Positions 9,618 to 64,000 of a stretch of 64,000 nucleotides of DNA are shown here, piece after piece. The notes under the pieces are model-generated. The model was not told where the DNA came from. It made no database searches and was given only the letters and a program-made list of their open reading frames with translations. This DNA comes from Escherichia coli (GTDB taxonomy: Bacteria > Pseudomonadota > Gammaproteobacteria > Enterobacterales > Enterobacteriaceae), in NCBI RefSeq assembly GCF_003334815.1, contig NZ_QOWO01000008.1; one strand, written 5' to 3'. Position numbers and translations under genes: made by a program. Every line of letters begins with the position of its first letter. The stretch's first letter is position 1.

Positions 9618-9657
9618 GACACTGCTTATTGCTTTGATTTTATTCTTATCTTTCCCA

Positions 9658-9744: not shown

Positions 9745-9756
9745 TCGGGAAGAAAG

Positions 9757-9830: not shown

Positions 9831-9884
9831 AAATTCTTCAGGCCTTTCAGCCAGACATCCGCTTGACGCCGATGTCTTTTAAAC

Positions 9885-9960
<76 letters not shown>

Positions 9961-10111
9961 ATTCATCAAGCAATCAGTTAATCACTTGATTTTATTATCG
10001 TCTGGCAATCAGTGCCGCCGTTCGATGCGTTGCATTCTACTTACCTGGCGCGATGAGTCAACGATATTTTTCACCACTTTTGATCGTTTGCTGAAAATTA
10101 CGCCGAAACGA

Positions 10112-10660: not shown

Positions 10661-10716
10661 AATGACGGGTAACTATCTGTTGTCAGTAAGATTACCCCTA
10701 TGTTGCTACAGAGACA

Positions 10717-13952: not shown

Positions 13953-14675
13953 TCAAATTAAGCCAGTAGCGGCCGCGTAACAGGCAACCTGGGTCTTATT
14001 CGGTGCATTGATTTTTTTCTGCATGTTTTTCTGATGGAAATTGACCGTATTCTCAGAGATTGACAAAATCATCGCTATCTCTGCTGATGTCTTCCCTTCC
14101 GCCGTCCATTTCAAAATTTCTTTTTCGCGCTTGCTGAAATTCATCTCTGGCGTCATCACTATTTCATCATTTAAACGCATCAGAGCCATCAGACTTTCGC
14201 GCACCAGTAACTGCATTTTTAATTGCAGTTCATCACTAAGAATGGGTATTTCGCGCGCGCTGCTACGGGAAAAGGACAAAAAGCCCAGCGCCCGGTTTGG
14301 CAGCATTAAATACTGAGTGACACCGCGGCGTAAACCATGTGCGCGCGCGGCTTCCCATAACGGCTGTGCTTCGCTGAATAAGTCATCATTCCACATTAAA
14401 TGGCCCTGACTAAAGTTTTCAGGGTTCAGCACCGGATCAATTGCGAGAAAGTTTTTTGCCTGATAATAACTAACCCACGCCTCAGGGTAATTGGTGTAGA
14501 AAGCCACTTTAGGTCGCGTGAATGGTACCGGGTGGCGAACACATAACGAATAGTAATCGTACTCTAGCTGCTGAGCCTGAAGCTCTATTTCATGGTAGAC
14601 CTCTTCTGCGGCCTCCATCCTCTGAAAACGCAACAGCATCGTGCGACGCCAGCTGAAAAAATCCGTATCCTGCAT
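13953..14675 (-). CDS. sdiA: LuxR-family quorum-sensing regulator SdiA
   Basis: ORF track 13953..14687; start trimmed to MQDTDFFSWRRTMLLRFQ (240 aa); autoinducer-binding plus LuxR HTH. Confidence 0.95.
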   Translation of the reverse strand: MQDTDFFSWRRTMLLRFQRMEAAEEVYHEIELQAQQLEYDYYSLCVRHPVPFTRPKVAFYTNYPEAWVSYYQAKNFLAIDPVLNPENFSQGHLMWNDDLFSEAQPLWEAARAHGLRRGVTQYLMLPNRALGFLSFSRSSAREIPILSDELQLKMQLLVRESLMALMRLNDEIVMTPEMNFSKREKEILKWTAEGKTSAEIAMILSISENTVNFHQKNMQKKINAPNKTQVACYAAATGLI

Positions 14676-14904
14676 AGTAAACCGCAACGCCCCTGAGAGT
14701 GAGTATCATTTATAATGATAATTCAAACTATCACATAAATAAGATTTATATATAATTTATATTATTCAGGCAATGAATTACTTTTGCAAGCCATCGCATT
14801 CTCTTATGTTATTAATGAGTTATGCTGATTTGTTAAGCTGTTTTATCACGCTTGAAATGGCGTCCCGCCCCGACAGGTGAATCGTCGGGGCTGATTTTTT
14901 CTTA

Positions 14905-15657
14905 TTATTGCAGCAGAAACTTCTCGAGGAACTGGCGGGTGCGAGGCTGCTGGGGATCGGCAAATAACGCTTTTGCTGCCCCCTGCTCGACTATCCGCCC
15001 CTGGTCCATAAAAATCGCCCGGTCCGCAACATCCCGGGCAAAGCTCATTTCGTGCGTCACAATCACCATCGTGCGCTTTTCCTGCGCCAGCTGACGGATG
15101 GTGTTCAGGACTTCGCCCACCAGCTCTGGATCCAGCGCCGACGTTGGCTCGTCAAACAAAATCACCTCAGGACGCATTGCCAGCGCACGTGCAATCGCAA
15201 CACGTTGCTGTTGACCGCCAGACAAACGACGTGGATAGCTGGTTTCTTTACCGGCCAGCCCAACTTTCGCCAACAGCTCGCGAGCGCGCGCCGTGGCCTC
15301 TTCTTTCGGTTCGCCTTTGACGATCACCGGCCCTTCAATAATGTTTTCCAGCACCGTACGATGCGGAAACAAATTAAAGTTCTGGAAGACAAACCCGACG
15401 TGCTGACGCAACTGGCGAATCAGCGATTTTTGCTGACTTAATGAACGTGCAGTATCAATAGTGATATCGCCAACGGTGATAGTTCCCGCTTCCGGTTGTT
15501 CCAGCAGATTTATGCTGCGTAGCAACGTGGTTTTGCCGGAACCACTCGGACCGATAATTGCCACCACTTCGCCAGGCTTTACCTCAAGGTCGATACCGTG
15601 CAGCACCGTCTGACCGTGAAATTTTTTCACCAGGTTCTTAACTTCAATGGCACTCAT
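14905..15657 (-). CDS. tcyN: L-cystine ABC transporter ATP-binding protein
   Basis: 250-aa ABC ATPase with Walker A GPSGSGKTT and signature LSGGQQQRV. Confidence 0.95.
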   Translation of the reverse strand: MSAIEVKNLVKKFHGQTVLHGIDLEVKPGEVVAIIGPSGSGKTTLLRSINLLEQPEAGTITVGDITIDTARSLSQQKSLIRQLRQHVGFVFQNFNLFPHRTVLENIIEGPVIVKGEPKEEATARARELLAKVGLAGKETSYPRRLSGGQQQRVAIARALAMRPEVILFDEPTSALDPELVGEVLNTIRQLAQEKRTMVIVTHEMSFARDVADRAIFMDQGRIVEQGAAKALFADPQQPRTRQFLEKFLLQ

Positions 15658-16322
15658 TTTGGTTCTCTCTCCTGGCGATTAAGTTGATTCTCAAAATGGT
15701 TCTGCAACGTCGATAATACTGTCGCCATGATCCAGTAGATGAGCGAAGCCGCCAGGTACATGGTGAACACCTCCAGCGTGCGCGAGGTAATCAACTGCGC
15801 CTGACGGAACAGCTCCGGCACCTGAATTGTCGCGGCCAGCGACGTATCTTTTACCAGGCTGATAAAGCTGTTCGACAGCGGCGGCAACGCCACCCGCGCC
15901 GCCTGTGGCAAAATCGCGCGACGCATAGTCTGCCATGGCGTCATACCAATACTGGCAGCTGCTTCCCACTGACCTTTATCAATAGAAGAAATGGCGGCGC
16001 GCAGCGTTTCGGCAGCATAGGCGGCAGTGTTGAGCGACAGACCAATCATTGCTGACGGAATGGGATCTAATTCGATACCAAACTGCGGCAGGCCGTAATA
16101 GATCATAAACAGTTGTGCGATGAGCGGTGTACCACGAAAAATAGAGATATAAAAACGCGCCAGCCAGCGCACGGGCCAGATTGGCGACAGGCGCATCAGC
16201 GCGAGAATAAACCCGAGCAGTAAGCCAAAAAACATGCCGCCGATACTGAGTTGCAGCGTATACCCAGCCCCTTTCAGCAGGAACGGCAAGGAATCAATAA
16301 CCAGTTGTATACTTTCTTGCAT
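15654..16322 (-). CDS. tcyL: L-cystine ABC transporter permease
   Basis: 222-aa polytopic permease; overlaps tcyN by 4 bp. Confidence 0.95.
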   Translation of the reverse strand: MQESIQLVIDSLPFLLKGAGYTLQLSIGGMFFGLLLGFILALMRLSPIWPVRWLARFYISIFRGTPLIAQLFMIYYGLPQFGIELDPIPSAMIGLSLNTAAYAAETLRAAISSIDKGQWEAAASIGMTPWQTMRRAILPQAARVALPPLSNSFISLVKDTSLAATIQVPELFRQAQLITSRTLEVFTMYLAASLIYWIMATVLSTLQNHFENQLNRQEREPK

Positions 16323-16336
16323 GAGCGTTCCCGGAG

Positions 16337-18228
<1,892 letters not shown>

Positions 18229-24213: not shown

Positions 24214-25701
24214 ATGCGTAATCCCACGCTGTTACAATGTTTTCACTGGTATTACCCGGAAGGCGGTAAGCTCTGGCCTGAACTGGCCGAGCGCGCCGAC
24301 GGTTTTAATGATATTGGTATCAATATGGTCTGGTTGCCGCCCGCCTATAAAGGCGCATCGGGCGGGTATTCGGTCGGCTACGACTCCTATGATTTATTTG
24401 ATTTAGGCGAGTTTGATCAGAAAGGCAGCATCCCTACTAAATATGGCGATAAAGTACAATTGCTGGCCGCCATTGACGCCCTGAAACGTAATGACATTGC
24501 GGTGCTGTTGGACGTGGTAGTCAACCACAAAATGGGCGCGGATGAAAAAGAAGCTATTCGCGTGCAGCGTGTAAATGCTGACGACCGTACGCAAATTGAT
24601 GAAGAAATCATTGAGTGCGAAGGCTGGACGCGTTACACCTTCCCCGCCCGTGCCGGGCAATACTCACAGTTTATCTGGGATTTCAAATGTTTTAGCGGTA
24701 TCGACCATATCGAAAACCCTGATGAAGATGGCATATTTAAAATTGTTAACGACTACACCGGCGAAGGCTGGAACGATCAGGTTGATGATGAATTAGGTAA
24801 TTTCGATTATCTGATGGGCGAGAATATCGATTTTCGCAATCATGCCGTGACGGAAGAGATTAAATACTGGGCGCGCTGGGTGATGGAACAAACGCAATGC
24901 GACGGTTTTCGTCTTGATGCGGTCAAACATATACCGGCATGGTTTTATAAAGAGTGGATCGAACACGTACAAGAAGTTGCACCAAAGCCGCTGTTTATTG
25001 TGGCGGAGTACTGGTCGCATGAAGTCGATAAACTGCAAACGTATATTGATCAGGTGGAAGGCAAAACCATGCTGTTCGATGCGCCGCTGCAGATGAAATT
25101 CCATGAAGCATCGCGCATGGGGCGCGACTACGACATGACGCAGATTTTCACGGGTACATTAGTGGAAGCCGATCCTTTCCACGCCGTGACGCTCGTTGCC
25201 AATCACGACACCCAACCGTTGCAAGCCCTCGAAGCGCCGGTCGAACCGTGGTTTAAACCGCTGGCGTATGCCTTAATTTTGTTGCGGGAAAATGGCGTTC
25301 CTTCGGTATTCTATCCGGACCTCTACGGTGCGCATTACGAAGATGTCGGCGGTGACGGGCAAACCTATCCGATAGATATGCCAATAATCGAACAGCTTGA
25401 TGAGTTAATTCTCGCCCGTCAGCGTTTCGCCCACGGTGTACAGACATTATTTTTCGACCATCCGAACTGCATTGCCTTTAGCCGCAGTGGCACTGACGAA
25501 TATCCCGGCTGCGTGGTGGTCATGTCGAACGGGGATGATGGCGAAAAAACCATTAATCTGGGAGAGAATTACGGCAATAAAACCTGGCGTGATTTTCTGG
25601 GGAACCGGCAAGAGAGCGTAGTAACCGACGAAAACGGTGAAGCGACCTTCTTTTGCAACGGCGGCAGCGTCAGCGTGTGGGTTATCGAAGAGGTGATTTA
25701 A
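24214..25701 (+). CDS. amyA: Cytoplasmic alpha-amylase (GH13)
   Basis: 495-aa ORF with GH13 motifs ([16 protein letters not shown]). Confidence 0.95.
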
Positions 25702-25706
25702 ATTCA

Positions 25707-25727
25707 TCCCCGGCGGCAAGCCGGGGA
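25707..25727. terminator. Hairpin between convergent amyA and yedD
   Basis: tccccggc-ggcaa-gccgggga stem-loop. Confidence 0.5.
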
Positions 25728-25734
25728 GATTTCA

Positions 25735-26151
25735 TTACGGCAGTGGCGTCGGTAACGGCGCTTTATCCAGCGCGGCGGCACACTCTGCCGTCGGGCGATC
25801 CACACGCTCCATCGTCATACCATCGTACTCAATGGTGTTACCGTCACGCTCAACCTCGTATAGCTCACGTTTTACGGTAACGTTAGTGAGATCATCAGAC
25901 ATCAATGTCAACTTACCCGGCACGGCAATCACCCGCTGCCACTGACGGCAATCAAGAGTATCGCCCTCTTTAGTGACAATCAGGCTGCCTATCGCTTCCG
26001 GGCTGACCAGCGCACGTTGCGGCCCTTTGGTCTGCCAGTAGCCCGCCAGCCAGTCCGGCGCGGGGGTTTTCACGACATTGTTATAGTTTTCGACTTCGGC
26101 ACAGCCCGCCAGCAACATGAGCGCGCCTGCAATTGCGAGTTTTTTCATCAT
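25735..26151 (-). CDS. yedD: Lipoprotein YedD
   Basis: 138-aa ORF with lipobox MKKLAIAGALMLLAGC. Confidence 0.9.
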   Translation of the reverse strand: MMKKLAIAGALMLLAGCAEVENYNNVVKTPAPDWLAGYWQTKGPQRALVSPEAIGSLIVTKEGDTLDCRQWQRVIAVPGKLTLMSDDLTNVTVKRELYEVERDGNTIEYDGMTMERVDRPTAECAAALDKAPLPTPLP

Positions 26152-26334
26152 TCGTCCTGCATGAGAAGAAAAGAAGATTGTGGCATTAAAGCCCTGATGT
26201 CGCCAGCCTTTACAGGTTCAGAGAGAAATTTGATCTAACTATTATTTTTGTGAATTATTACCCCGAAAATAAATTTGCATGATGTATGATTCGCGACTCT
26301 TGTTTCAAACCTTCTGAGTTCAGAGGCTACATTC

Positions 26335-27540
26335 ATGTCATGGCAGCAATTCAAACACGCCTGGTTGATTAAATTCTGGGCACCCATCCCTGCGGTCATC
26401 GCGGCGGGTATTCTCTCCACTTACTATTTTGGCATTACTGGCACCTTTTGGGCTGTCACGGGTGAATTTACCCGTTGGGGCGGCCAGCTCCTGCAGCTGT
26501 TTGGCGTCCATGCTGAAGAGTGGGGTTATTTTAAAATTATCCATCTGGAAGGATCGCCATTAACCCGCATCGACGGGATGATGATCCTCGGCATGTTTGG
26601 CGGCTGCTTTGCCGCAGCGCTGTGGGCCAACAATGTCAAACTGCGCATGCCACGCAGCCGTATCCGCATTATGCAGGCCATTATTGGCGGTATTATCGCT
26701 GGTTTTGGCGCGCGTCTGGCAATGGGCTGTAACCTGGCGGCGTTCTTTACCGGTATTCCTCAGTTCTCGCTGCATGCCTGGTTCTTTGCCATCGCCACTG
26801 CCATTGGTTCATGGTTTGGCGCACGCTTTACCCTGCTGCCCATCTTCCGTATTCCCGTGAAAATGCAGAAAGTTTCTGCCGCCTCACCGCTGACGCAAAA
26901 ACCGGATCAGGCGCGGCGTCGTTTTCGTCTCGGGATGCTGGTCTTTTTCGGCATGCTGGGCTGGGCGCTGCTCACGGCGATGAACCAACCCAAACTGGGG
27001 CTGGCAATGCTGTTTGGCGTCGGCTTTGGTTTACTGATTGAACGTGCGCAAATCTGCTTTACTTCGGCGTTCCGCGATATGTGGATCACCGGACGTACCC
27101 ACATGGCGAAAGCAATCATTATTGGTATGGCGGTGAGTGCCATCGGGATCTTCAGTTACGTACAGTTAGGTGTTGAACCCAAAATCATGTGGGCGGGACC
27201 AAACGCGGTAATTGGTGGTTTACTGTTTGGTTTTGGCATCGTGCTGGCAGGCGGCTGCGAAACCGGTTGGATGTACCGCGCGGTAGAAGGTCAGGTGCAC
27301 TACTGGTGGGTCGGTCTGGGCAATGTGATCGGCTCAACCATTCTGGCGTATTACTGGGATGATTTCGCTCCGGCGCTGGCCACCGACTGGGACAAAATCA
27401 ACCTGCTGAAAACCTTTGGCCCGATGGGTGGCCTGCTGGTGACATATTTGCTGTTGTTTACTGCGCTGATGTTGATTATCGGCTGGGAAAAACGCTTCTT
27501 CCGCCGTGCGGCACCGCAGACTGCTAAGGAGATCGCATGA
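26335..27540 (+). CDS. yedE: YeeE/YedE family inner-membrane transporter (sulfur/selenium-related)
   Basis: 401-aa polytopic ORF; overlaps yedF start. Confidence 0.93.
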   Translation: MSWQQFKHAWLIKFWAPIPAVIAAGILSTYYFGITGTFWAVTGEFTRWGGQLLQLFGVHAEEWGYFKIIHLEGSPLTRIDGMMILGMFGGCFAAALWANNVKLRMPRSRIRIMQAIIGGIIAGFGARLAMGCNLAAFFTGIPQFSLHAWFFAIATAIGSWFGARFTLLPIFRIPVKMQKVSAASPLTQKPDQARRRFRLGMLVFFGMLGWALLTAMNQPKLGLAMLFGVGFGLLIERAQICFTSAFRDMWITGRTHMAKAIIIGMAVSAIGIFSYVQLGVEPKIMWAGPNAVIGGLLFGFGIVLAGGCETGWMYRAVEGQVHYWWVGLGNVIGSTILAYYWDDFAPALATDWDKINLLKTFGPMGGLLVTYLLLFTALMLIIGWEKRFFRRAAPQTAKEIA

Positions 27541-29468: not shown

Positions 29469-32793
<3,325 letters not shown>

Positions 32794-32794
<1 letters not shown>

Positions 32795-34167
32795 TGACCA
32801 CGCGCCTGACTCGCTGGCTAACCACGCTGGATAACTTTGAAGCCAAAATGGCGCAGTTGCCTGCGGTACGTCGCTATGGGCGATTAACCCGCGCTACCGG
32901 GCTGGTGCTGGAAGCCACCGGATTACAATTGCCGCTCGGCGCAACCTGTGTCATTGAACGCCAGAACGGCAGCGAAACGCACGAAGTAGAAAGCGAAGTC
33001 GTTGGCTTTAACGGTCAACGGCTGTTTTTAATGCCGCTGGAGGAAGTGGAAGGTGTCCTGCCCGGCGCGCGGGTTTATGCCAAAAACATTTCGGCTGAAG
33101 GACTGCAAAGCGGCAAGCAGTTGCCGCTCGGTCCGGCGTTATTAGGTCGCGTTCTGGACGGCAGCGGTAAGCCGCTCGATGGCCTGCCCTCCCCCGATAC
33201 GACGGAAACCGGTGCGCTGATTACCCCGCCATTTAACCCGTTGCAACGTACACCGATTGAACATGTGCTGGACACCGGCGTGCGCCCAATCAATGCCCTG
33301 CTTACCGTTGGGCGCGGGCAGCGTATGGGTCTGTTTGCTGGTTCTGGTGTCGGTAAAAGTGTGCTGCTGGGGATGATGGCCCGTTACACCCGCGCCGATG
33401 TCATTGTCGTGGGTTTAATTGGTGAACGCGGACGCGAAGTAAAAGATTTTATTGAGAATATCCTCGGTGCCGAAGGACGTGCACGCTCAGTGGTGATTGC
33501 CGCTCCGGCGGATGTGTCTCCACTCCTGCGAATGCAAGGTGCCGCCTATGCCACGCGCATTGCCGAAGATTTTCGCGATCGTGGTCAGCATGTGTTGCTG
33601 ATTATGGACTCCCTCACCCGCTACGCGATGGCCCAGCGTGAAATTGCGCTGGCGATTGGCGAACCCCCCGCCACCAAAGGTTATCCACCGTCGGTGTTTG
33701 CCAAATTACCGGCACTGGTCGAGCGTGCCGGAAATGGCATTAGCGGCGGCGGCTCGATTACCGCGTTTTATACCGTGCTCACTGAAGGCGATGACCAGCA
33801 GGATCCGATTGCCGACTCCGCGCGGGCGATCCTCGACGGTCACATTGTGCTGTCTCGCCGACTGGCGGAAGCCGGGCACTATCCGGCTATCGATATTGAA
33901 GCGTCGATCAGCCGCGCAATGACGGCGTTGATCAGTGAGCAACATTACGCGCGAGTGCGCACCTTTAAACAGCTGTTGTCGAGTTTTCAGCGTAACCGCG
34001 ATCTGGTTAGCGTCGGCGCGTATGCCAAAGGCAGCAATCCGATGCTCGATAAAGCCATCGCCCTGTGGCCGCAGCTGGAGGGCTATTTACAACAAGGCAT
34101 TTTTGAACGTGCGGACTGGGAAGCGTCTCTCCAGGGGCTGGAGCGTATTTTCCCGACAGTGTCATAA
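32794..34167 (+). CDS. fliI: Flagellum-specific ATPase FliI
   Basis: 457-aa ORF with Walker [14 protein letters not shown]; ATGA overlap with fliH. Confidence 0.97.
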
Positions 34168-34185
34168 CCCAGGAGATAACGGCAG

Positions 34186-34629
34186 ATGGCAGAACATGGC
34201 GCGCTGGCGACCCTGAAAGATCTGGCAGAAAAAGAGGTAGAGGATGCCGCGCGCCTGCTGGGTGAAATGCGTCGCGGATGTCAGCAGGCGGAAGAACAGC
34301 TCAAAATGCTGATCGATTATCAGAATGAATATCGCAATAACCTCAACAGCGATATGAGTGCCGGGATGACCAGCAACCGCTGGATCAACTATCAGCAGTT
34401 TATCCAGACGCTGGAAAAAGCCATTACTCAGCATCGCCAGCAACTTAATCAGTGGACGCAGAAAGTTGACATTGCCCTGAACAGCTGGCGAGAAAAGAAA
34501 CAACGTTTGCAGGCCTGGCAGACACTGCAGGAACGGCAATCCACGGCGGCACTGCTTGCAGAAAACCGCCTCGATCAGAAAAAGATGGATGAGTTCGCCC
34601 AGCGCGCCGCCATGAGGAAACCTGAATGA
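34186..34629 (+). CDS. fliJ: Flagellar export chaperone/stalk protein FliJ
   Basis: 147-aa coiled-coil ORF; synteny. Confidence 0.95.
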
Positions 34630-35753
34630 TTCGCTTAGCGCCCTTGATTACCGCCGACGTTGACACCACCACATTGCCTGGCGGCAAAGCCAGCGATACT
34701 GCACAAGATTTTCTCGCGTTGTTGAGCGAAGCATTAGCAGGCGAGACAACTACCGACAAAGCGGCCCCCCAGTTGCTGGTGGCAACAGATAAGCCCATGA
34801 CAAAAGGCGAGCCGCTGATCAGCGATATTGTTTCCGACGCGCAACAAGCGGATTTACTGATCCCTGTGGATGAAACACCGCTTGTCATCAACGACGAACA
34901 ATCCACATCAACACCGTTAACCACCGCTCAGACGATGACGTTGGCTGCGGTGGCTGACAAAAATACGACAAAAGACGAAAAAGCGGATGATCTGAATGAA
35001 GACGTCACCGCAAGCCTGAGCGCCCTTTTTGCGATGTTGCCGGGTTTTGACAATACGCCCAAAGTGACTGATGTGCCGTCAACCGTGTTACCGGCAGAGA
35101 AACCAACGCTCTTCACAAAACTGACTTCTGCGCAACTCACAACAGCACAGCCTGATGATGCCCCCGGCACACCAGCTCAGCCATTAACACCGCTGGTAGC
35201 AGAAGCCCAGAGTAAAGCGGAAGTCATCAGCACACCTTCACCGGTGACCGCTGCCGCCAGCCCGCTAATCACTCCACACCAGACACAGCCACTGCCCACC
35301 GTCGCCGCGCCTGTTTTGAGTGCACCGCTGGGTTCTCACGAATGGCAACAATCATTAAGCCAGCATATTTCGCTGTTCTCCCGCCAGGGGCAACAAAGTG
35401 CAGAGTTGCGTCTGCACCCGCAGGATTTAGGTGAAGTGCAAATCTCCCTCAAAGTGGATGATAACCAGGCGCAAATCCAGATGGTTTCACCACATCAGCA
35501 CGTACGCGCCGCCCTGGAAGCAGCGCTGCCGGTACTGCGTACGCAGCTGGCCGAAAGTGGCATTCAGTTAGGGCAAAGCAACATCAGTGGCGAAAGCTTT
35601 AGTGGTCAGCAGCAGGCCGCTTCCCAGCAACAGCAAAGCCAACGCACAGCAAACCATGAACCTCTGGCGGGGGAAGACGACGATACGCTTCCGGTTCCCG
35701 TCTCTTTACAAGGGCGTGTAACAGGCAACAGCGGCGTTGATATTTTCGCCTAA
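34626..35753 (+). CDS. fliK: Flagellar hook-length control protein FliK
   Basis: 375-aa Pro/Thr/Ala-rich ORF; overlaps fliJ stop. Confidence 0.95.
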
Positions 35754-35791
35754 CGTCAGAGGTAGCACCGTAATCCGCGTCTTTTCCCCGC

Positions 35792-35818
35792 TTTGTTGCG
35801 CTCAAGACGCAGGATAAT
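35792..35818 (+). promoter_or_regulatory. Sigma-28-type promoter upstream of fliL
   Basis: TCAA-gacgcaggataatta-GCCGATAA, perfect -10 and 15-nt spacer. Confidence 0.65.
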
Positions 35819-35857
35819 TAGCCGATAAGCAGTAGCGACACAGGAAGACCGCAACAC

Positions 35858-36322
35858 ATGACTGATTACGCGATAAGCAAGAAAAGCAAGCGATCGCTTT
35901 GGATCCCGATTCTGGTATTCATTACCCTCGCGGCCTGTGCCAGCGCAGGTTACAGCTACTGGCATTCGCATCAGGTTGCCGCTGACGACAACGCGCAGCA
36001 ACGCGTCGTGCCCTCACCGGTCTTCTACGCGCTGGATACCTTCACGGTCAATTTGGGCGATGCGGATCGCGTGCTTTATATCGGCATAACCCTGCGCCTG
36101 AAAGATGAAGCTACCCGCTCGCGGCTGAGTGAGTATTTGCCGGAAGTCCGTAGCCGTTTGCTGTTACTGTTTTCGCGTCAGGATGCTGCCGTACTGGCGA
36201 CAGAAGAAGGCAAGAAAAACCTGATTGCCGAGATTAAAACCACGCTTTCCACCCCGCTTGTTGCCGGGCAACCGAAACAGGATGTCACCGACGTGCTGTA
36301 TACCGCTTTTATTCTGCGATAA
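35858..36322 (+). CDS. fliL: Flagellar basal body-associated protein FliL
   Basis: 154-aa ORF with single N-terminal TM segment. Confidence 0.95.
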
Positions 36323-36326
36323 CGAC

Positions 36327-37331
36327 ATGGGCGATAGTATTCTTTCTCAAGCTGAAATTGATGCGCTGTTGAATGGTGACAGCGAAGTCAAAGACGAACC
36401 GACAGCCAGTGTTAGCGGCGAAAGTGACATTCGTCCGTACGATCCGAATACCCAACGACGGGTTGTGCGCGAACGTTTGCAGGCGCTGGAAATCATTAAT
36501 GAGCGCTTTGCTCGCCATTTTCGTATGGGGCTGTTCAACCTGCTGCGTCGTAGCCCGGATATAACCGTCGGGGCCATCCGCATTCAGCCGTACCATGAAT
36601 TTGCCCGCAACCTGCCGGTGCCGACCAACCTGAACCTTATCCATCTGAAACCGCTGCGCGGCACAGGGCTGGTGGTGTTCTCGCCGAGTCTGGTGTTTAT
36701 CGCCGTGGATAACCTGTTTGGCGGCGATGGACGCTTCCCGACCAAAGTGGAAGGTCGCGAGTTTACCCATACCGAACAGCGCGTCATCAACCGCATGTTA
36801 AAGCTGGCGCTTGAAGGCTATAGCGACGCCTGGAAGGCGATTAATCCGCTGGAAGTTGAGTACGTGCGTTCGGAAATGCAGGTGAAATTTACCAATATCA
36901 CCACCTCGCCGAACGACATTGTGGTTAACACGCCGTTCCATGTGGAGATTGGCAACCTGACCGGCGAATTTAATATCTGCCTGCCATTCAGCATGATCGA
37001 ACCGCTACGGGAATTGTTGGTTAACCCGCCGCTGGAAAACTCGCGTAATGAAGATCAGAACTGGCGCGATAACCTGGTGCGCCAGGTGCAGCATTCACAG
37101 CTGGAGCTGGTCGCCAACTTTGCCGATATCTCGCTACGCCTGTCGCAGATTTTAAAACTGAAACCCGGTGACGTCCTGCCGATAGAAAAACCCGACCGCA
37201 TCATCGCCCATGTTGACGGCGTCCCGGTGCTGACCAGTCAGTACGGCACTCTCAACGGTCAGTATGCGTTACGGATAGAACATTTGATTAACCCGATTTT
37301 AAATTCTCTGAACGAGGAACAGCCCAAATGA
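36327..37331 (+). CDS. fliM: Flagellar motor switch protein FliM
   Basis: ORF track 36225..37331; start trimmed to MGDSILSQAEIDALL (334 aa). Confidence 0.96.
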   Translation: MGDSILSQAEIDALLNGDSEVKDEPTASVSGESDIRPYDPNTQRRVVRERLQALEIINERFARHFRMGLFNLLRRSPDITVGAIRIQPYHEFARNLPVPTNLNLIHLKPLRGTGLVVFSPSLVFIAVDNLFGGDGRFPTKVEGREFTHTEQRVINRMLKLALEGYSDAWKAINPLEVEYVRSEMQVKFTNITTSPNDIVVNTPFHVEIGNLTGEFNICLPFSMIEPLRELLVNPPLENSRNEDQNWRDNLVRQVQHSQLELVANFADISLRLSQILKLKPGDVLPIEKPDRIIAHVDGVPVLTSQYGTLNGQYALRIEHLINPILNSLNEEQPK

Positions 37332-37741
37332 GTGACATGAATAATCCGGCCGATGACAACAACGGCGCAATGGACGATCTGTGGGCTGAAGCGTTGAGCG
37401 AACAAAAATCAACCAGCAGCAAAAGCGCTGCCGACGCGGTGTTCCAGCAATTTGGCGGTGGTGATGTCAGCGGAACGTTGCAGGATATCGACCTGATTAT
37501 GGATATTCCGGTCAAGCTGACCGTCGAGCTGGGCCGTACGCGGATGACCATCAAAGAGCTGTTGCGTCTGACGCAAGGGTCCGTCGTGGCGCTGGACGGT
37601 CTGGCGGGCGAACCACTGGATATTCTGATCAACGGTTATTTAATCGCCCAGGGCGAAGTGGTGGTCGTTGCCGATAAATATGGCGTGCGGATCACCGATA
37701 TCATTACTCCGTCTGAGCGAATGCGCCGCCTGAGCCGTTAG
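37328..37741 (+). CDS. fliN: Flagellar motor switch protein FliN
   Basis: 137-aa ORF; overlaps fliM stop. Confidence 0.96.
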   Translation: MSDMNNPADDNNGAMDDLWAEALSEQKSTSSKSAADAVFQQFGGGDVSGTLQDIDLIMDIPVKLTVELGRTRMTIKELLRLTQGSVVALDGLAGEPLDILINGYLIAQGEVVVVADKYGVRITDIITPSERMRRLSR

Positions 37742-37743
37742 TG

Positions 37744-38109
37744 ATGAATAACCACGCTACTGTGCAATCTTCCGCGCCGGTTTCTGCTGCGCCACTGCTG
37801 CAGGTGAGCGGCGCACTCATCGCCATTATTGCCCTGATCCTCGCTGCTGCCTGGCTGGTAAAACGGTTGGGATTTGTCCCTAAACGCACTGGCGTTAACG
37901 GTCTGAAAATTAGCGCCAGTGCTTCGCTGGGCGCGCGTGAACGGGTTGTGGTGGTCGATGTGGAAGATGCACGGCTGGTGCTCGGCGTTACCGCAGGGCA
38001 AATCAATCTGCTGCATAAACTTCCCCCTTCAGCACCAACGGAAGAGATACCGCAGCCCGATTTTCAGTCGGTCATGAAAAACTTGCTTAAGCGTAGCGGG
38101 AGATCCTGA
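37744..38109 (+). CDS. fliO: Flagellar biosynthesis protein FliO
   Basis: ORF track 37741..38109; start set to [10 protein letters not shown] (121 aa). Confidence 0.93.
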
Positions 38110-38846
38110 TGCGTCGTTTGTTGTCTGTCGCCCCTGTCCTTCTCTGGCTGATTACGCCCCTCGCCTTCGCGCAACTGCCGGGTATCACCAGCCAGCCGCT
38201 GCCTGGCGGTGGACAAAGCTGGTCGCTCCCGGTGCAGACGCTGGTGTTCATCACCTCGTTGACGTTTATTCCGGCAATTTTACTGATGATGACCAGTTTC
38301 ACCCGCATCATTATTGTTTTTGGTTTATTGCGTAACGCGCTGGGAACACCCTCCGCGCCACCTAACCAGGTATTGCTGGGGTTGGCGCTGTTTTTGACCT
38401 TTTTTATTATGTCGCCGGTGATCGACAAAATTTATGTCGATGCGTACCAGCCATTCAGCGAAGAGAAAATATCAATGCAGGAGGCGCTGGAAAAAGGGGC
38501 GCAGCCGCTGCGTGAGTTTATGCTGCGTCAGACCCGTGAGGCGGATTTAGGGTTGTTTGCCAGACTGGCGAATACCGGCCCGTTGCAGGGACCTGAAGCC
38601 GTGCCGATGCGCATTTTGCTCCCGGCCTACGTGACCAGCGAGTTGAAAACCGCATTTCAGATAGGCTTCACGATTTTCATCCCTTTTTTGATTATCGACC
38701 TGGTGATTGCCAGCGTGTTGATGGCATTGGGGATGATGATGGTCCCCCCCGCCACCATTGCTCTGCCCTTTAAACTGATGCTGTTTGTACTGGTGGATGG
38801 TTGGCAATTGCTGGTCGGTTCGCTGGCGCAGAGCTTTTACAGCTAG
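38109..38846 (+). CDS. fliP: Flagellar type III export apparatus protein FliP
   Basis: 245-aa membrane ORF; ATGA overlap with fliO. Confidence 0.97.
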
Positions 38847-38855
38847 AGAGGCAAA

Positions 38856-39125
38856 ATGACACCTGAATCGGTCATGATGATGGGGACTGAAGCGATGAAA
38901 GTCGCGCTGGCACTGGCTGCCCCGCTATTGTTGGTAGCGTTGGTCACGGGCCTTATCATCAGTATTTTGCAGGCCGCCACGCAGATTAACGAAATGACGC
39001 TGTCGTTTATTCCGAAAATCATCGCCGTATTTATCGCCATTATTATTGCCGGACCGTGGATGCTCAATCTGTTGCTGGATTACGTCCGCACCTTGTTCAC
39101 TAACCTGCCGTATATCATCGGGTAG
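38856..39125 (+). CDS. fliQ: Flagellar export apparatus protein FliQ
   Basis: 89-aa membrane ORF. Confidence 0.96.
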
Positions 39126-39132
39126 CCGTACT

Positions 39133-39918
39133 ATGTTGCAGGTGACAAGCGAACAATGGCTATCCTGGTTAAGCCTGTACTTCTGGCCGTTACTGCGCGT
39201 GCTGGCGCTGATCTCCACCGCACCAATTCTGAGCGAACGCAGCGTGCCGAAACGGGTAAAACTGGGGCTGGCAATGATGATCACGTTCGCCATTGCCCCA
39301 TCATTACCTGCCAACGATGTTCCTGTTTTTTCGTTCTTTGCTCTGTGGCTGGCCGTACAGCAGATCCTGATCGGTATTGCGCTTGGTTTTACCATGCAAT
39401 TTGCCTTTGCCGCTGTGCGAACCGCTGGCGAAATTATCGGTCTGCAAATGGGGCTGTCATTTGCGACGTTTGTCGATCCGGCCAGCCATCTCAATATGCC
39501 CGTTTTAGCGCGTATCATGGATATGCTGGCGTTATTGCTGTTCCTGACATTTAACGGTCATTTATGGTTAATTTCACTGCTGGTCGATACCTTTCACACC
39601 CTGCCGATTGGTGGCGAACCGCTGAACAGCAATGCGTTTCTGGCACTCACCAAAGCAGGGAGTTTGATTTTCCTTAACGGGCTGATGCTGGCGTTACCGC
39701 TCATTACTCTGCTGCTGACACTGAATCTGGCATTAGGTTTACTTAATCGTATGGCCCCGCAATTATCCATTTTTGTTATTGGATTTCCATTAACTCTGAC
39801 TGTCGGCATCTCTTTAATGGCGGCATTAATGCCGTTAATTGCGCCTTTTTGCGAACATTTATTCAGTGAAATTTTTAATTTGCTGGCTGATATTATTAGT
39901 GAATTGCCATTAATATAA
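39133..39918 (+). CDS. fliR: Flagellar export apparatus protein FliR
   Basis: ORF track 39046..39918; start trimmed to [19 protein letters not shown] (261 aa). Confidence 0.95.
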
Positions 39919-39943
39919 TTCCGTAACGTTTATCATGTTATCC

Positions 39944-39957
39944 TAAGGATTATCCGA
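39944..39957. promoter_or_regulatory. Candidate RcsAB box upstream of rcsA
   Basis: TAAGGATTATCCGA resembles the RcsAB box consensus TaAGaatatTCctA; rcsA autoregulation is established. Confidence 0.35.
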
Positions 39958-40207
39958 AAAATAATACCTACGAACATCTTCCAGGATACTCCTGCGGCGA
40001 AATATTTGTTTTAAGCTCACTCACATATCGCAACATTTACTTTACTTTAAGACAATTCCAGGCAAATTATACAACACTTTACGGGATAGTAAGTCCGCCT
40101 GGAAAATCGCGAGAGTGGCGCATTAGGTGACCCATGTTGTTCCGTTTAGTCATGATGAAATATTCAGGTAAGGGGAATTATCGTTACGCATTGAGTGAGG
40201 GTATGCC

Positions 40208-40831
40208 ATGTCAACGATTATTATGGATTTATGTAGTTACACCCGACTAGGTTTAACCGGGTATCTGTTGAGTAGAGGGGTTAAAAAAAGAGAAATCAAC
40301 GACATTGAAACCGTTGATGACCTTGCCATAGCTTGTGATTCACAGCGCCCTTCAGTGGTGTTTATTAATGAGGACTGTTTCATCCATGATGCTTCTAACA
40401 GTCAGCGCATCAAGCACATCATTAATCAACATCCCAATACGTTATTTATCGTTTTTATGGCAATTGCCAATGTTCATTTTGATGAATATCTATTGGTCAG
40501 AAAAAATTTATTGATCAGTTCTAAATCGATTAAACCGGAATCTCTCGACGATATCCTTGGCGATATTCTGAAAAAAGAGACAACGATAACCTCTTTTTTA
40601 AATATGCCGACGTTATCATTGAGCCGGACCGAATCGAGTATGTTGCGAATGTGGATGGCAGGTCAGGGAACCATTCAAATCTCTGACCAAATGAATATCA
40701 AAGCCAAGACCGTTTCATCGCATAAAGGTAATATTAAACGTAAGATCAAAACGCATAATAAACAGGTTATCTACCATGTCGTCCGACTGACGGATAATGT
40801 GACTAATGGTATTTTTGTCAACATGCGCTAA
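40208..40831 (+). CDS. rcsA: Capsule synthesis co-regulator RcsA (LuxR-type)
   Basis: 207-aa ORF with C-terminal LuxR HTH. Confidence 0.95.
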
Positions 40832-57353: not shown

Positions 57354-57386
57354 CTTCATATTGCCGACAAAGTACGCGTTATCCCT

Positions 57387-57420
57387 GCCGGATGTGGCGC
57401 GAGCGCCCTATCCGGCCTAC
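57387..57420. repeat. REP (palindromic unit) element downstream of msrQ
   Basis: gccggatgtggcgcgagcgccctatccggcctac matches the enterobacterial REP pattern. Confidence 0.7.
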
Positions 57421-57550
57421 TCAGATCACATCAGGTTATGTTTCGTTTGTCATCAACCTCAAATTATCAACACAATTCATTTTATTTCAATAAGATAGAT
57501 AAGTACACCTGAGAAAACTATGCTCTCATCTCCTAAGAGTTGTTGCATTT

Positions 57551-57577
57551 TGTTATATGTTACAATATAACATTACA
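57551..57577. promoter_or_regulatory. Candidate Zur box in the zinT promoter
   Basis: Palindromic tgttatatgttacaatataacatta resembles the Zur operator; about 35 bp upstream of the zinT start. Confidence 0.5.
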
Positions 57578-57609
57578 CATCATATACAATGACTCTGGAG
57601 GAAACTGTT

Positions 57610-58260
57610 TTGGCGATTCGTCTTCACAAACTGGCTGTTGCTTTAGGTGTCTTTATGGTTAGCGCTCCTGCCTTTTCGCATGGTCATCACTCACACGGCA
57701 AACCCTTAACAGAGGTCGAACAAAAAGCTGCTAATGGTGTTTTTGATGATGCCAATGTACAAAACCGAAAGCTGAGTGACTGGGATGGAGTCTGGCAATC
57801 CGTTTATCCTTTACTGCAAAGTGGCAAACTTGACCCCGTCTTTCAGAAGAAAGCGGATGCAGATAAAACTAAAACATTTGCTGAAATTAAAGATTATTAT
57901 CACAAAGGTTATGCGACAGATATCGAGATGATTGGCATTGAGGACGGCATTGTTGAATTCCATAGAAATAATGAAACAACATCCTGTAAATATGATTACG
58001 ATGGATACAAAATACTCACCTATAAATCAGGCAAGAAAGGCGTTCGTTACTTATTCGAATGTAAAGATCCTGAAAGCAAAGCCCCTAAATATATACAATT
58101 TAGCGATCATATAATTGCACCACGAAAATCATCTCATTTTCACATTTTTATGGGTAATGATTCACAGCAATCTTTATTAAATGAAATGGAAAACTGGCCA
58201 ACGTATTATCCATATCAGTTGAGTAGCGAAGAAGTGGTCGAGGAAATGATGTCTCATTGA
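57610..58260 (+). CDS. zinT: Periplasmic zinc/cadmium-binding protein ZinT
   Basis: ORF track 57589..58260; start set to TTG giving [10 protein letters not shown]... (216 aa); His-rich HGHHSHG after the signal peptide. Confidence 0.93.
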
Positions 58261-58602
58261 GTATTCTCATGATAACGCCTCGATGCCGCTTTAGTAAGTC
58301 ATCATAACTGCCACTGGTCCATCCACAAACGCCACTGAACGCAAGCTAGCTACAGACACGCTCATCACTATGACGTGTCTGTATATTAATAAGCTAACCC
58401 GCATTGAGTTAACCAATAACGGATTCCATACACAATACGGCCAACAGAGAAAGATACCTGTGCTCACGCCATTGCTTATATTGGCTGGTTACAATGTGCA
58501 CTATCAATTTTTTAAATAACAAATTCTTAAAACCACTTCTGTATAAGGAATTTTTAAGGTTCGTGGGATAGCTTGACTGTAAAAATTACAGGAGCTACAA
58601 AA

Positions 58603-59133
58603 ATGAACCGATTCTCAAAAACTCAAATTTATTTACATTGGATAACGCTGCTTTTCGTTGCAATAACCTATGCCGCGATGGAACTCCGTGGCTGGTTTCC
58701 TAAAGGTAGTAGTACTTATCTGCTGATGCGAGAAACACATTACAATGCGGGTATATTCGTTTGGGTGTTAATGTTTTCACGCCTGATTATAAAACACCGT
58801 TATAGTGATCCTTCTATTGTACCACCGCCACCTGCCTGGCAAATGAAAGCGGCTTCGCTAATGCACATCATGCTTTATATAACCTTCCTTGCACTTCCTC
58901 TGCTGGGGATTGCTTTAATGGCTTACAGTGGAAAATCGTGGAGTTTCCTTGGTTTCAATGTGTCTCCCTTTGTTACCCCAAACAGCGAAATTAAAGTACT
59001 GATAAAAAATATTCACGAAACCTGGGCAAATATAGGTTACTTTTTAATCGCAGCTCACGCTGGCGCAGCACTCTTTCATCACTACATTCAGAAAGATAAT
59101 ACTCTGTTACGAATGATGCCTCGCCGCAAATAA
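58603..59133 (+). CDS. yodB: Cytochrome b561 family protein YodB
   Basis: ORF track 58573..59133; start trimmed to MNRFSKTQIYLHW (176 aa). Confidence 0.92.
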   Translation: MNRFSKTQIYLHWITLLFVAITYAAMELRGWFPKGSSTYLLMRETHYNAGIFVWVLMFSRLIIKHRYSDPSIVPPPPAWQMKAASLMHIMLYITFLALPLLGIALMAYSGKSWSFLGFNVSPFVTPNSEIKVLIKNIHETWANIGYFLIAAHAGAALFHHYIQKDNTLLRMMPRRK

Positions 59134-59702
59134 GTCGATCCCCTGACAAGGAAATGTGAACCATGGACATCAACGCGTCATAAATGTTTACGCAAGTGCA
59201 CAATGCACCCTTTCCACTATCAACAAGGAGGAGCAGAAACTGTGTAAATCGTACAATGGTAAGACTTATCAAAAATACAGGTTAATTTTGGTATTTAAAC
59301 CTTTTTTACTTGTTAGTATGATACAAAGGCTTTCAAAAAAGCTGGGAAATTCAACAACTCTTGGAAATTATGGACTTTGTCCCGCGGCTTTAATCTGACG
59401 GCCGCGTTCCTTTTTTGACTCAATTATTGACCCCTTCTCTACGCAACTTCAGTTCCCACCACCAACTTTGCGGCAGTTTCATAGGATGAATGTCTAAAAG
59501 AATAATGGTGAGCGATAAGAAAACGACTGAATAACTGCACATATTCGCTCGAAACTTTCCTGTCAGATCCATAGCGAATCAAGTGCTGAATGTCACAGTA
59601 TCGAACAGAAAACAGTGACGATCTAACCCATCAAGAATATTCTACGATTGTTCTGTTTAGGAAAAGCAAGGCGGGAAGTCGGGAGATAAGTCATTGATAA
59701 AG

Positions 59703-59792
59703 TGGCGGAGAGAGGGGGATTTGAACCCCCGGTAGAGTTGCCCCTACTCCGGTTTTCGAGACCGGTCCGTTCAGCCGCTCCGGCATCTCTCC
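59703..59792 (-). tRNA. serU: tRNA-Ser (CGA)
   Basis: Reverse complement reads GGAGAGATGCCGGAGCGGCTGAACGGACCGGTCTCGAAAACCGG...CTCTCCGCCA, 90 nt with long variable arm. Confidence 0.93.
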
Positions 59793-59885
59793 GTTCAGAT
59801 GGTTGCCATGATGCCAGGAAATTTGGCATTTTAACAGTCCCTGTCCGTGCAATTTTGTTCAAGTGACGAGTTTGCGAGCAAAACG

Positions 59886-60683
59886 ATGATTAAGTGGCCC
59901 TGGAAAGTACAAGAATCAGCACATCAAACTGCCCTTCCCTGGCAGGAAGCACTATCGATCCCCCTTTTAACGTGTCTGACGGAACAGGAACAAAGCAAAT
60001 TAGTCACTCTTGCCGAACGTTTTTTACAGCAAAAGCGGCTTGTTCCTTTACAGGGCTTTGAACTGGATTCATTAAGAAGCTGCCGGATAGCACTTCTATT
60101 TTGCCTACCCGTTCTGGAGTTAGGACTGGAATGGCTGGATGGTTTTCATGAAGTCTTAATTTATCCTGCGCCATTTGTGGTCGATGATGAATGGGAAGAC
60201 GATATCGGTCTGGTGCATAACCAACGTATTGTTCAGTCAGGTCAGAGCTGGCAGCAAGGGCCTATCGTTTTGAACTGGTTGGATATACAAGATTCTTTTG
60301 ATGCTTCTGGTTTTAACCTGATTATTCATGAAGTCGCTCATAAGCTGGACACCCGTAACGGCGATCGCGCCAGCGGAGTTCCCTTTATTCCGTTGCGTGA
60401 GGTTGCTGGCTGGGAACACGATCTTCATGCTGCAATGAACAACATTCAGGAAGAAATCGAATTGGTTGGCGAGAATGCGGCGAGCATTGATGCTTATGCT
60501 GCGAGTGATCCTGCTGAATGTTTTGCCGTACTTTCTGAATATTTCTTTAGCGCCCCAGAACTTTTTGCTCCTCGTTTCCCTTCATTGTGGCAACGTTTCT
60601 GCCAATTTTATCAACAAGATCCTTTGCAGAGACTGCATCACGCTAATGATACAGACTCGTTTTCGGCGACGAATGTTCATTAA
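59886..60683 (+). CDS. mtfA: Mlc titration factor A (zinc-dependent peptidase family)
   Basis: ORF track 59847..60683; start trimmed to [14 protein letters not shown] (265 aa); HEVAH motif. Confidence 0.93.
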
Positions 60684-60783
60684 TTAACAACTTTGCAGAT
60701 TAATTAACCAATTGAAATGACTTATGAAATTTAGTGTTGACAGACAAGGTACCGCTAAGTAATATGCGCCCCGTTCACACGAT

Positions 60784-60859
60784 TCCTCTGTAGTTCAGTC
60801 GGTAGAACGGCGGACTGTTAATCCGTATGTCACTGGTTCGAGTCCAGTCAGAGGAGCCA
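60784..60859 (+). tRNA. asnT: tRNA-Asn (GUU)
   Basis: TCCTCTGTAGTTCAGTCGGTAGAACGGCGGACTGTTAATCCG...GGAGCCA, 76 nt. Confidence 0.93.
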
Positions 60860-60947
60860 AATTCTAAAAATTCGCTTTTTTAGCGCAATGTCACTGACCT
60901 TAGTTGAACATTGTTTTTTAACGGATAGCGGGTTTTTAACATCTTAA

Positions 60948-60980
60948 GCGCCCTCGACCTTTATGGTTGAGGGCGTTTTG
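60948..60980 (+). terminator. Terminator downstream of asnT
   Basis: gcgccctc...gagggcg hairpin followed by TTTTG. Confidence 0.55.
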
Positions 60981-61172
60981 CTATGAACGCCATCACCATT
61001 TTCCCCTCGATTATAAAACTTGAGTTATTCAGTAGTCTCCCCTCTTGCAACTCACACCCAAAACTGCCTAACGAAAAGTTATTAATTTTCAATCATATTG
61101 CTATCAGTATTTACATTTTTTCGCTGTGCTAGAAAGGGCGCATTTATGTTAGCTCGTTCAGGGAAGGTAAGC

Positions 61173-63023
61173 ATGGCTACGAAGAAGAGAAGTGGAGAAG
61201 AAATAAATGACCGACAAATATTATGCGGGATGGGAATTAAACTACGCCGCTTAACTGCGGGTATCTGCCTGATAACTCAACTTGCGTTCCCTATGGCTGC
61301 GGCAGCACAAGGTGTGGTAAACGCCGCAACCCAACAACCAGTTCCTGCACAAATTGCCATTGCAAATGCCAATACGGTGCCCTACACCCTTGGAGCGCTG
61401 GAATCGGCCCAAAGCGTTGCCGAACGTTTCGGTATTTCGGTGGCTGAGTTACGCAAACTCAACCAGTTTCGTACGTTTGCTCGAGGTTTTGATAATGTCC
61501 GCCAGGGTGATGAACTGGATGTCCCGGCTCAAGTTAGTGAAAATAATTTAACCCCGCCACCGGGTAATAGCAGTGACAACCTCGAGCAACAGATAGCCAG
61601 TACTTCACAGCAAATCGGGTCTCTGCTCGCCGAAGATATGAACAGCGAGCAAGCGGCAAATATGGCGCGTGGATGGGCCTCTTCTCAGGCTTCAGGCGCA
61701 ATGACAGACTGGTTAAGCCGCTTCGGTACCGCAAGAATCACGCTGGGCGTGGATGAAGATTTTAGCCTGAAGAACTCCCAGTTCGATTTTCTCCATCCGT
61801 GGTATGAAACGCCTGATAATCTCTTTTTCAGTCAGCATACTCTCCATCGTACTGACGAGCGTACGCAGATTAACAACGGCTTAGGTTGGCGTCATTTCAC
61901 TCCCACATGGATGTCGGGCATCAACTTCTTTTTCGACCACGATCTTAGCCGTTACCACTCCCGCGCCGGCATTGGCGCGGAGTACTGGCGCGACTATCTA
62001 AAATTAAGCAGTAACGGCTATTTGCGACTGACCAACTGGCGCAGCGCACCTGAACTGGACAACGATTATGAAGCACGCCCGGCCAATGGCTGGGATGTAC
62101 GCGCAGAAGGCTGGCTACCCGCCTGGCCGCACCTTGGCGGTAAACTGGTCTATGAACAGTATTATGGCGATGAAGTGGCCCTGTTCGATAAAGACGATCG
62201 GCAAAGTAATCCTCATGCCATAACCGCTGGACTTAACTATACCCCCTTCCCGCTGATGACCTTCAGCGCGGAGCAACGCCAGGGTAAACAGGGCGAAAAT
62301 GACACCCGTTTTGCCGTCGATTTTACCTGGCAACCTGGCAGCGCAATGCAGAAACAGCTTGACCCGAATGAAGTCGCTGCACGGCGTAGCCTTGCAGGCA
62401 GCCGTTATGATCTGGTGGATCGCAACAACAATATCGTTCTGGAATATCGCAAAAAAGAACTGGTTCGCCTGACCCTGACAGACCCCGTGACAGGGAAGTC
62501 AGGAGAAGTGAAATCACTGGTTTCGTCGCTACAAACCAAATATGCCCTGAAAGGCTATAACGTCGAAGCCACCGCACTGGAAGCTGCCGGTGGCAAAGTG
62601 GTCACAACGGGTAAAGATATTCTGGTTACCCTGCCGGCTTACCGGTTCACCAGTACGCCAGAAACCGATAACACCTGGCCGATTGAAGTCACCGCCGAAG
62701 ATGTCAAAGGCAATTTGTCGAATCGTGAACAGAGCATGGTGGTCGTTCAGGCACCTACGCTAAGCCAGAAAGATTCCTCGGTATCGTTAAGTACCCAAAC
62801 ATTGAACGCGGATTCCCATTCAACCGCCACACTGACTTTTATTGCGCATGATGCAGCAGGTAATCCTGTTGTCGGGCTGGTGCTCTCGACGCGTCACGAA
62901 GGTGTTCAGGACATCACCCTTTCTGACTGGAAAGATAATGGTGACGGAAGCTATACCCAGATCCTGACCACAGGAGCGATGTCTGGCACGCTGACGCTGA
63001 TGCCACTGAATCGCCACGGATAA
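61173..63023 (+). pseudogene. yeeJ: yeeJ inverse-autotransporter adhesin, N-terminal ~617 codons only; reading frame ends at the IS junction
   Basis: ORF track 61098..63023; start set to MATKKRSGEEINDRQILCGMGIKLRR; stop codon lies 1 nt from the stop of the IS3-family orfB on the opposite strand; full-length YeeJ is several-fold longer. Confidence 0.85.
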
Positions 63024-64000
63024 TTTAGACACTTCCGAGCCGTTGATAATACTGGTTTTCATATTCTGTCGGTGACATCTGATCGCTGGAACCATGCCGA
63101 CGCTTACTGTTATAAAACATTTCGATGTAATCAAAAATATCGCTGCGGACTTCTTCCCGCGTTCCGTAGATCTTTTTCTTTATCCGTTCGCGTTTCAACA
63201 ACTGGAAAAAGCTTTCTGCAACCGCATTATCATGGCAGTTACCGCGACGGCTCATGCTGCCCTCCAGGCCGTGTGATTTTAGGAACGACTGCCATTCATG
63301 GCTTGTGTACTGACTGCCCTGATCCGAATGAACCAGCACCTGTTTTTGGGGATTACGCCGCCATACAGCCATCAGCAGTGCGTTCAGGACAATGTCTTTT
63401 GTCATCCGGGATTGCATGGACCAGCCGATAATTTTGCGTGAGAACAGATCAACAACCACGGCAAGATACAGCCAGCCTTCGTGGGTCCTTATGTAGGTTA
63501 TGTCCGTTACCCAACGCTCATCCGGAGCATCCGGATTGAACTGTCGCTGAAGCCTGTTGGGCGACACGATACTGGCCTCGCCTTTACGAGCCCGCGGGCT
63601 CCGGTATCCGACCTGAGCCTTTATCCCGATACGTTTCATCAGTCGCCAGACTCTGTTCACTCCGCACTGTTGCCCGCTGTCCCGCAGATCTAAATGGATT
63701 TTGCGATAACCATAGACGCATCCCGATTCCAGCCAGAACTGTTTAATCTGTCCTGTCAGTCTCAGGTCTGCCTGATGGCGTTGTGAATGCGGCTGCTGAA
63801 GCCAGGCGTAAAAACCACTGGGATGAACATCCAGCACCCGACAGAGCAGGCGAACAGGCCAGCAACAGGTGTTGTCACGGATAAAGGCGTACCTCAGTCG
63901 GACAGCTTTGCGAAGTACGCCACTGTAGATTCAATTGGTCAACGCAACAGTTATGTGAAAACATGGGGTTGCGGAGGTTTTTTGAATGAGACGAACATTT
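62998..64000 (-). mobile_element. IS3-family insertion sequence, partial (continues beyond right edge), inserted in yeeJ
   Basis: Transposase orfB plus upstream orfA-frame sequence running to the window edge; left boundary estimated to within ~25 bp from a TG-initiated terminal sequence just 3' of the orfB stop. Confidence 0.75.
63025..63837 (-). CDS. IS3-family transposase OrfB (DDE integrase core)
   Basis: 270-aa ORF with IS3-family motifs (VTDITYIRT..GWLYLAVVVDLFSRKIIGWSM, HSDQGSQYTS, NCHDNAVAESFF); starts at GTG and the frame stays open a further ~30 codons upstream, consistent with an OrfAB fusion. Confidence 0.9.
   Translation of the reverse strand: MLDVHPSGFYAWLQQPHSQRHQADLRLTGQIKQFWLESGCVYGYRKIHLDLRDSGQQCGVNRVWRLMKRIGIKAQVGYRSPRARKGEASIVSPNRLQRQFNPDAPDERWVTDITYIRTHEGWLYLAVVVDLFSRKIIGWSMQSRMTKDIVLNALLMAVWRRNPQKQVLVHSDQGSQYTSHEWQSFLKSHGLEGSMSRRGNCHDNAVAESFFQLLKRERIKKKIYGTREEVRSDIFDYIEMFYNSKRRHGSSDQMSPTEYENQYYQRLGSV

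Follow-up and report, generated by a model that had tools for sequence, protein, structure and literature searches.

The serU and asnT tRNA genes in the 64-kb stretch of Escherichia coli DNA analyzed here (the window) most probably represent unoccupied attachment sites of the K-12 type, with nothing integrated at either of them, a reading to which we assign a probability of about 95% on the basis of the sequence. Such an empty state is ordinary, already described and common, and there is nothing new in it. P4-type and lambdoid tyrosine recombinases use the 3′ end of a tRNA gene as attB, and their integration duplicates the 3′ segment of the tRNA while the gene itself stays intact. Each of the two 3′ ends considered here would act as attB for tyrosine-recombinase elements, and an empty site would stay a potential target; at serU and asnT nothing has been integrated, both genes running directly into conserved flanks, and the IS3-family/IS30 pair in yeeJ, the sole mobile DNA nearby, is unrelated to tRNA-directed integration. 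Since neither tRNA gene is damaged and each adjoins its conserved flank without a break, an incoming element could presumably still integrate at either site. The hotspot status of serU and asnT is established in the literature (PMC7545054; PMC5595812): PAI-serU (22 kb, TcpC) and PAI-asnT (HPI) are tabulated for strains 536 and CFT073, among many others (PMC7545054), and yeeJ adjoins asnT, a common insertion site (PMC5595812).

Gene identity and local layout

Both tRNA genes, tRNA-Ser(CGA) and tRNA-Asn(GTT), were found intact by ARAGORN, and their cloverleaf and anticodon were borne out by ARAGORN and by Rfam, where the tRNA model scored 57 bits at serU and 72.6 bits at asnT (Table 1). The coordinates that the initial annotation had given for the two genes, 59703 and 60859, proved exact in the ARAGORN prediction. 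serU and asnT are divergently oriented with mtfA between them, and their 3′ ends face outward, that of serU toward yodB and that of asnT toward yeeJ, each across an uninterrupted spacer. mtfA had been named together with yodB as following serU; yodB indeed faces the integration side, but because serU is read from the minus strand, mtfA lies at its 5′ side. Likewise, the description of the flanks as ordinary core genes holds for yodB and mtfA, which are conserved, but not for yeeJ, which is a variable adhesin gene and not part of the core (PMC5595812). A probe joining yeeJ 62700-63006 to the initial 304 bp of the IS had matches in at most 3,372 of 5,426 genomes. Gene annotation was carried over to the window with an offset of 38499 from the RefSeq record of E. 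coli 52F4, the closest complete genome (isolated from a calf in Switzerland), which differs from the window by nine mismatches and no gaps over 64 kb (99.98% identity).

Table 1. Features around serU and asnT, in window coordinates.
Feature	Description	Position	Strand	Basis
yodB	cytochrome b561 homolog; conserved gene on the integration (3′) side of serU	58603..59133	+	52F4 RefSeq annotation; NCBIfam NF008566, E 6e-48
yodB-serU spacer	uninterrupted serU 3′ flank, 569 bp	59134..59702		K-12 alignment
serU	tRNA-Ser(CGA)	59703..59792	-	ARAGORN, Rfam, K-12 alignment
mtfA	DgsA anti-repressor; core gene	59886..60683	+	52F4 annotation; NF011939, E 3e-163; 99.6% identical to K-12
promoter-like site	5′ of asnT (TTGACA, 17-nt spacer, TAATAT)	60737..60765	+	consensus match only
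asnT	tRNA-Asn(GTT)	60784..60859	+	ARAGORN, Rfam, K-12 alignment
asnT-yeeJ spacer	313 bp	60860..61172	+	100% identical to K-12
yeeJ	inverse autotransporter adhesin; truncated 5′ quarter	61173..63006	+	52F4 annotation; K-12 collinearity ends at 63006
IS3-family element, one end	transposase orfB part; terminal repeat TGAATCGCCACGG	63007..63923	-	NF033516; K-12 alignment break
probable IS30 left end	nested in the IS3-family element; runs off the window	63924..64000	+	terminal sequence TGTAGATTCAATTGG read directly

The first 136 nt of the asnT-yeeJ spacer (60860-60995), the asnT trailer, gave a fold (MFE -46.1 kcal/mol, z -5.9) with two strong hairpins that are probably one or two tRNA terminators in tandem; a simple terminator scan gave no call at this position.

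Comparison with K-12 and with the closest complete genome

K-12 MG1655 served as the reference empty state, and the window resembles it closely around both tRNA genes. serU (90/90) and asnT (76/76) are identical to their K-12 copies; the yodB-serU spacer is 569 bp long in both, with seven substitutions and no indel, and the asnT-yeeJ spacer (313 bp) does not differ between the two by a single base. Gene order and orientation, yodB-serU-mtfA-asnT-yeeJ, are the same, and positions 52000-63006 (11 kb) are collinear with K-12 at 98.9% identity with one gap. Relative to this empty state there is no cargo DNA between either tRNA gene and its conserved flank, in agreement with the earlier statement that the sites carry no island cargo, as both 3′ spacers are equal in length to those of K-12 and show no indels.

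The 52F4 annotation across the window shows ordinary chromosomal core genes, comprising otsB-araHGF, ftnA/B, tyrP, leuZ-cysT-glyW, uvrC, the fli operons, dcm-vsr, hprRS, msrPQ, zinT and yodB, and it contains no integrase over the equivalent stretch. Another tRNA cluster, leuZ-cysT-glyW (9658-9960, minus strand), is flanked by the core genes pgsA and yecA and has no insertion. Separately, a yedS/ompC-like porin gene at about 50291-51478 is intact in the window, while its K-12 counterpart has a frameshift and an internal stop. Only in this block does the alignment with otherwise collinear relatives break down, a sign that the gene may be a hypervariable surface-protein allele.

Searches for repeats, integrases and cargo

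The 3′ ends of serU and asnT were used as probes of 16-25 nt, allowing two or three mismatches, and over the whole 64-kb window they matched only themselves, the chance expectation for such matches being about zero. The direct repeat whose absence the initial annotation had noted was thus not found here either, and the 62-nt or 14-nt duplication of the serU 3′ end that bounds serU elements elsewhere has no counterpart in the window. A general repeat search of positions 57000-64000 returned only short two-copy families attributable to chance, none of them at a tRNA end. We then searched the window by tblastn (E≤10) with four island integrases, taken from the HPI at asnT, the HPI at asnU, the asnV island and a serU element. 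Only chance matches were obtained, the best with E 0.44, while the positive controls gave E 1e-26 down to 0, the queries recognizing one another across families with E values of 1e-26 to 1e-32 at 26% identity; the claim that no integrase lies by either tRNA gene is therefore upheld. Neither ybt/irp/fyuA genes nor a P4-type integrase were found in the 64-kb window by the 52F4-based annotation and tblastn. In an Rfam scan of 57000-64000 at E≤0.1 only the two tRNAs scored, and three sub-threshold hits in the same region either overlap a tRNA or fall far under the gathering score.

Occupancy of the two sites across E. coli

We queried 5,426 complete E. coli genomes with junction-spanning sequences. 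Under the 80% coverage criterion, on which the counts depend, and in a genome collection rich in clinical isolates, the mtfA-asnT-yeeJ junction was contiguous, and asnT accordingly empty, in 2,675 genomes (49%), while the occupied-type query, mtfA-asnT-HPI integrase, was contiguous in 2,116 (39%). A further minority carried related but different integrases, or the HPI integrase at an asn tRNA gene without the mtfA flank (H119, H121). The serU junction was contiguous, that is, empty, in 3,851 of the 5,426 genomes (71%). At asnT no single state is commoner than the empty one, and at serU the empty genomes form a clear majority. The role of asn tRNA genes as insertion sites of islands, to which the initial annotation had referred, is well reflected in the 2,116 genomes with the HPI integrase at asnT and agrees with the published tabulation (PMC7545054).

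In the occupied asnT genomes that were sampled, the match to the window stops at 60860-60864, the first bases past the tRNA. In the sampled genomes with an occupied serU, the terminal 62 nt (59703-59764) or 14 nt (59703-59716) of the gene recur on the yodB-side piece, and an intact serU gene remains with mtfA; in query coordinates, the matches broke at 417 and at 464/465, and the proximal piece began at 404. The block formed by the yodB-serU spacer was found in 5,423 of the 5,426 genomes, and in the occupied ones it is located with yodB at the far end of the insert. The insertion points used elsewhere are the same nucleotides as the tRNA 3′ ends here, and from this identity the serU and asnT sites of the window are presumably competent for integration. 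The census confirms earlier descriptions, yet it provides a useful baseline.

Nested insertion sequences in yeeJ

According to the initial annotation, the only mobile DNA nearby is an IS in yeeJ. Mobile DNA is indeed present there, but it consists of an IS3-family element with what is probably a nested IS30, and it accompanies a deletion relative to K-12: yeeJ is cut off at 63006, 2.1 kb downstream of asnT, and 5,993 bp of K-12 sequence are missing, the gap running from yeeJ, which loses its 3′ three quarters, across the spacer into yeeL. K-12 has a full-length yeeJ of 7.1 kb and the yeeL pseudogene, whereas here the IS3-family/IS30 pair takes the place of these 5,993 bp.

The element at 63007 belongs to the IS3 family by its orfB (NF033516, E 5.7e-101; score 338 bits, cutoff 160) and its terminal inverted repeats. 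Its ends are TGAATCGCCACGG and CCGTGGCGATTCA, the latter seen only in the proxy genome 52F4, where RefSeq labels the element just 'IS3 family transposase'. The sequence TGTAGATTCAATTGG at 63924 we take to be an end of IS30. The IS30 share of the window amounts to 77 bp; in 52F4 the identical stretch leads into a gene annotated as 'IS30-like element IS30 family transposase', which starts at the window-equivalent position 63986, and the element there is 1,221 bp long and flanked by a duplication of AC. Past IS30, the IS3-family element of 52F4 resumes, and its other end abuts the yeeL pseudogene (52F4 locus 24508-26963). The nested pair is an IS-associated deletion and not a tRNA-directed integration. 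The yeeJ::IS3 junction, common to only 48 of the 5,426 complete genomes, is a lineage marker.

The remaining asn tRNA genes

The window ends at 64000, 6-12 kb short of asnW, asnU and asnV, and the state of these three genes was inferred from proxy genomes. In 52F4, asnT, asnW, asnU and asnV are followed directly by yeeJ, yeeN, cbl and ldtA, and all four are empty. A repeat of the tRNA 3′ end to the right of asnT, beyond the window, had been named as the observation that would overturn the initial annotation; over 20 kb to the right in 52F4, the asn 3′ end occurs in the four tRNA-Asn genes and nowhere else. The four asn tRNA genes are also empty in G5 and EC102, the other two genomes checked that have the local layout of the window, again with no further asn 3′-end repeat in the 20 kb to the right. 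Because all four sites are empty in these three genomes, absence of an island is the favored reading, and the near-identical genomes make it quite probable that all four asn tRNA genes of the strain are free of islands.

That the strain lacks an island or has it at another asn copy were the right alternatives to pose, as relatives carry the HPI at asnU and an island at asnV. The second alternative, with the HPI or a related island at asnU or asnV just to the right of the window, is nevertheless unlikely. Two genomes with the same yeeJ::IS3 junction give it some weight: in Res13-Lact-PEB17-18 the HPI starts at asnU (integrase and ybtS to irp2; its locus 30933-40611), and in strain 2018-06-4CC an integrase 82% identical in protein sequence lies at asnV (its locus 32994-34501); H119 and H121 further document the HPI integrase beside an asn tRNA gene lacking the mtfA flank. 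However, both island-bearing relatives have ISEc23 in the yodB-serU spacer and flanks only 96-99% identical to the window, and one of them has a group II intron in the place of IS30, whereas none of the four asn sites is occupied in the three genomes with the exact layout of the window, 52F4 (99.98%) among them.

ISEc23, an IS66-family element of about 2.5 kb, occupies window-equivalent position 59440-59450 in both relatives, where the alignments on its two sides overlap by 11 bp; the serU 3′ end is approximately 260 bp away (Res13-Lact-PEB17-18 locus 14210-16741, 2018-06-4CC locus 14951-17482). RefSeq lists it under most of the best 25 matches, and it is absent from the window.

Past excision, choice of site and hidden remnants

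An element may once have occupied one or both sites and have been lost by precise integrase-mediated excision, which would have restored a clean attB. The asn tRNA cluster is dynamic within the yeeJ::IS3 lineage, and precise excision leaves no scar, the sequence being alike for a never-occupied and an emptied site. Still, we hold such a history to be improbable: the flanks are base-for-base K-12-like, there is no positive sign of excision, and empty is the prevailing state at both genes in the census. Ancestral emptiness is the simpler account, because the empty state is the commonest at asnT and the majority at serU.

asnT is empty in both Res13-Lact-PEB17-18 and 2018-06-4CC, and the choice of asn copy thus varies within one lineage. 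It is conceivable, though very improbable in our judgment, that HPI-type islands repeatedly entered asnU and asnV in the yeeJ::IS3 lineage while sparing asnT, and that the local context could bias the choice of attB; the candidate context could be the IS-mediated loss of yeeJ-yeeL or the structured asnT trailer. A random choice among four identical asn attB sites explains the two occupied relatives equally well.

A degraded island remnant concealed in the low-GC spacers beside the tRNA genes deserves hardly any credence: the zinT-yodB-spacer region (57250-59750) has a GC content of 37-42%, but the spacers are of K-12 length with 0-7 substitutions and contain no degenerate repeat, integrase fragment or non-tRNA Rfam family, and the serU spacer, present in nearly every genome of the census, moves with yodB when an element inserts. 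The E. coli genome average is about 50% GC, and we considered the low GC of the zinT-yodB-spacer block as a sign of foreign DNA and rejected it, since virtually all E. coli have the block and K-12 has it in collinear order.

Comparison with known elements

With serU and asnT, and probably every asn tRNA gene, read as empty, the strain would be without the yersiniabactin island, the TcpC island and an Sp14-type effector prophage at their usual positions. This absence fits commensal or livestock-associated E. coli, like the near-identical calf relative 52F4, and the value of the empty-site finding is one of bookkeeping only.

At asnT, the element for comparison is the HPI (yersiniabactin; PAI-asnT or PAI IV536), which uses exactly the 3′ end that is empty in the window and brings an integrase and ybt/irp/fyuA, neither of which the window has. 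In an occupied example, a tyrosine recombinase gene begins about 160 bp past asnT and is followed by ybtS, ybtX, ybtQ, ybtP and ybtA, which identifies the insert as the HPI. At serU, the known inserts are more diverse. O157:H7 Sakai carries the 44-kb lambdoid prophage Sp14 with espJ and tccP, bounded by the 62-nt repeat (extracted locus 4405-8464); an ICE-like element with an integrase, a PilV shufflon adhesin, a BfpA-type pilin and TraD is bounded by the 14-nt repeat (extracted locus 6582-12417); and a further insert, an island, encodes RepL and a pair of H-NS-family paralogs (extracted locus 1-7200). The serU island of 536 and CFT073, Sp14 and the ICE-like elements all integrate between serU and yodB, at the serU 3′ end, and none of them is in the window. 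As for the mobile DNA that the window does contain, it agrees with known IS30 and IS3-family elements in its orfB with terminal inverted repeats and in the probable left end and transposase start of IS30, and it differs from plain IS30 and IS3-family elements in that the two are nested and bridge a deletion.
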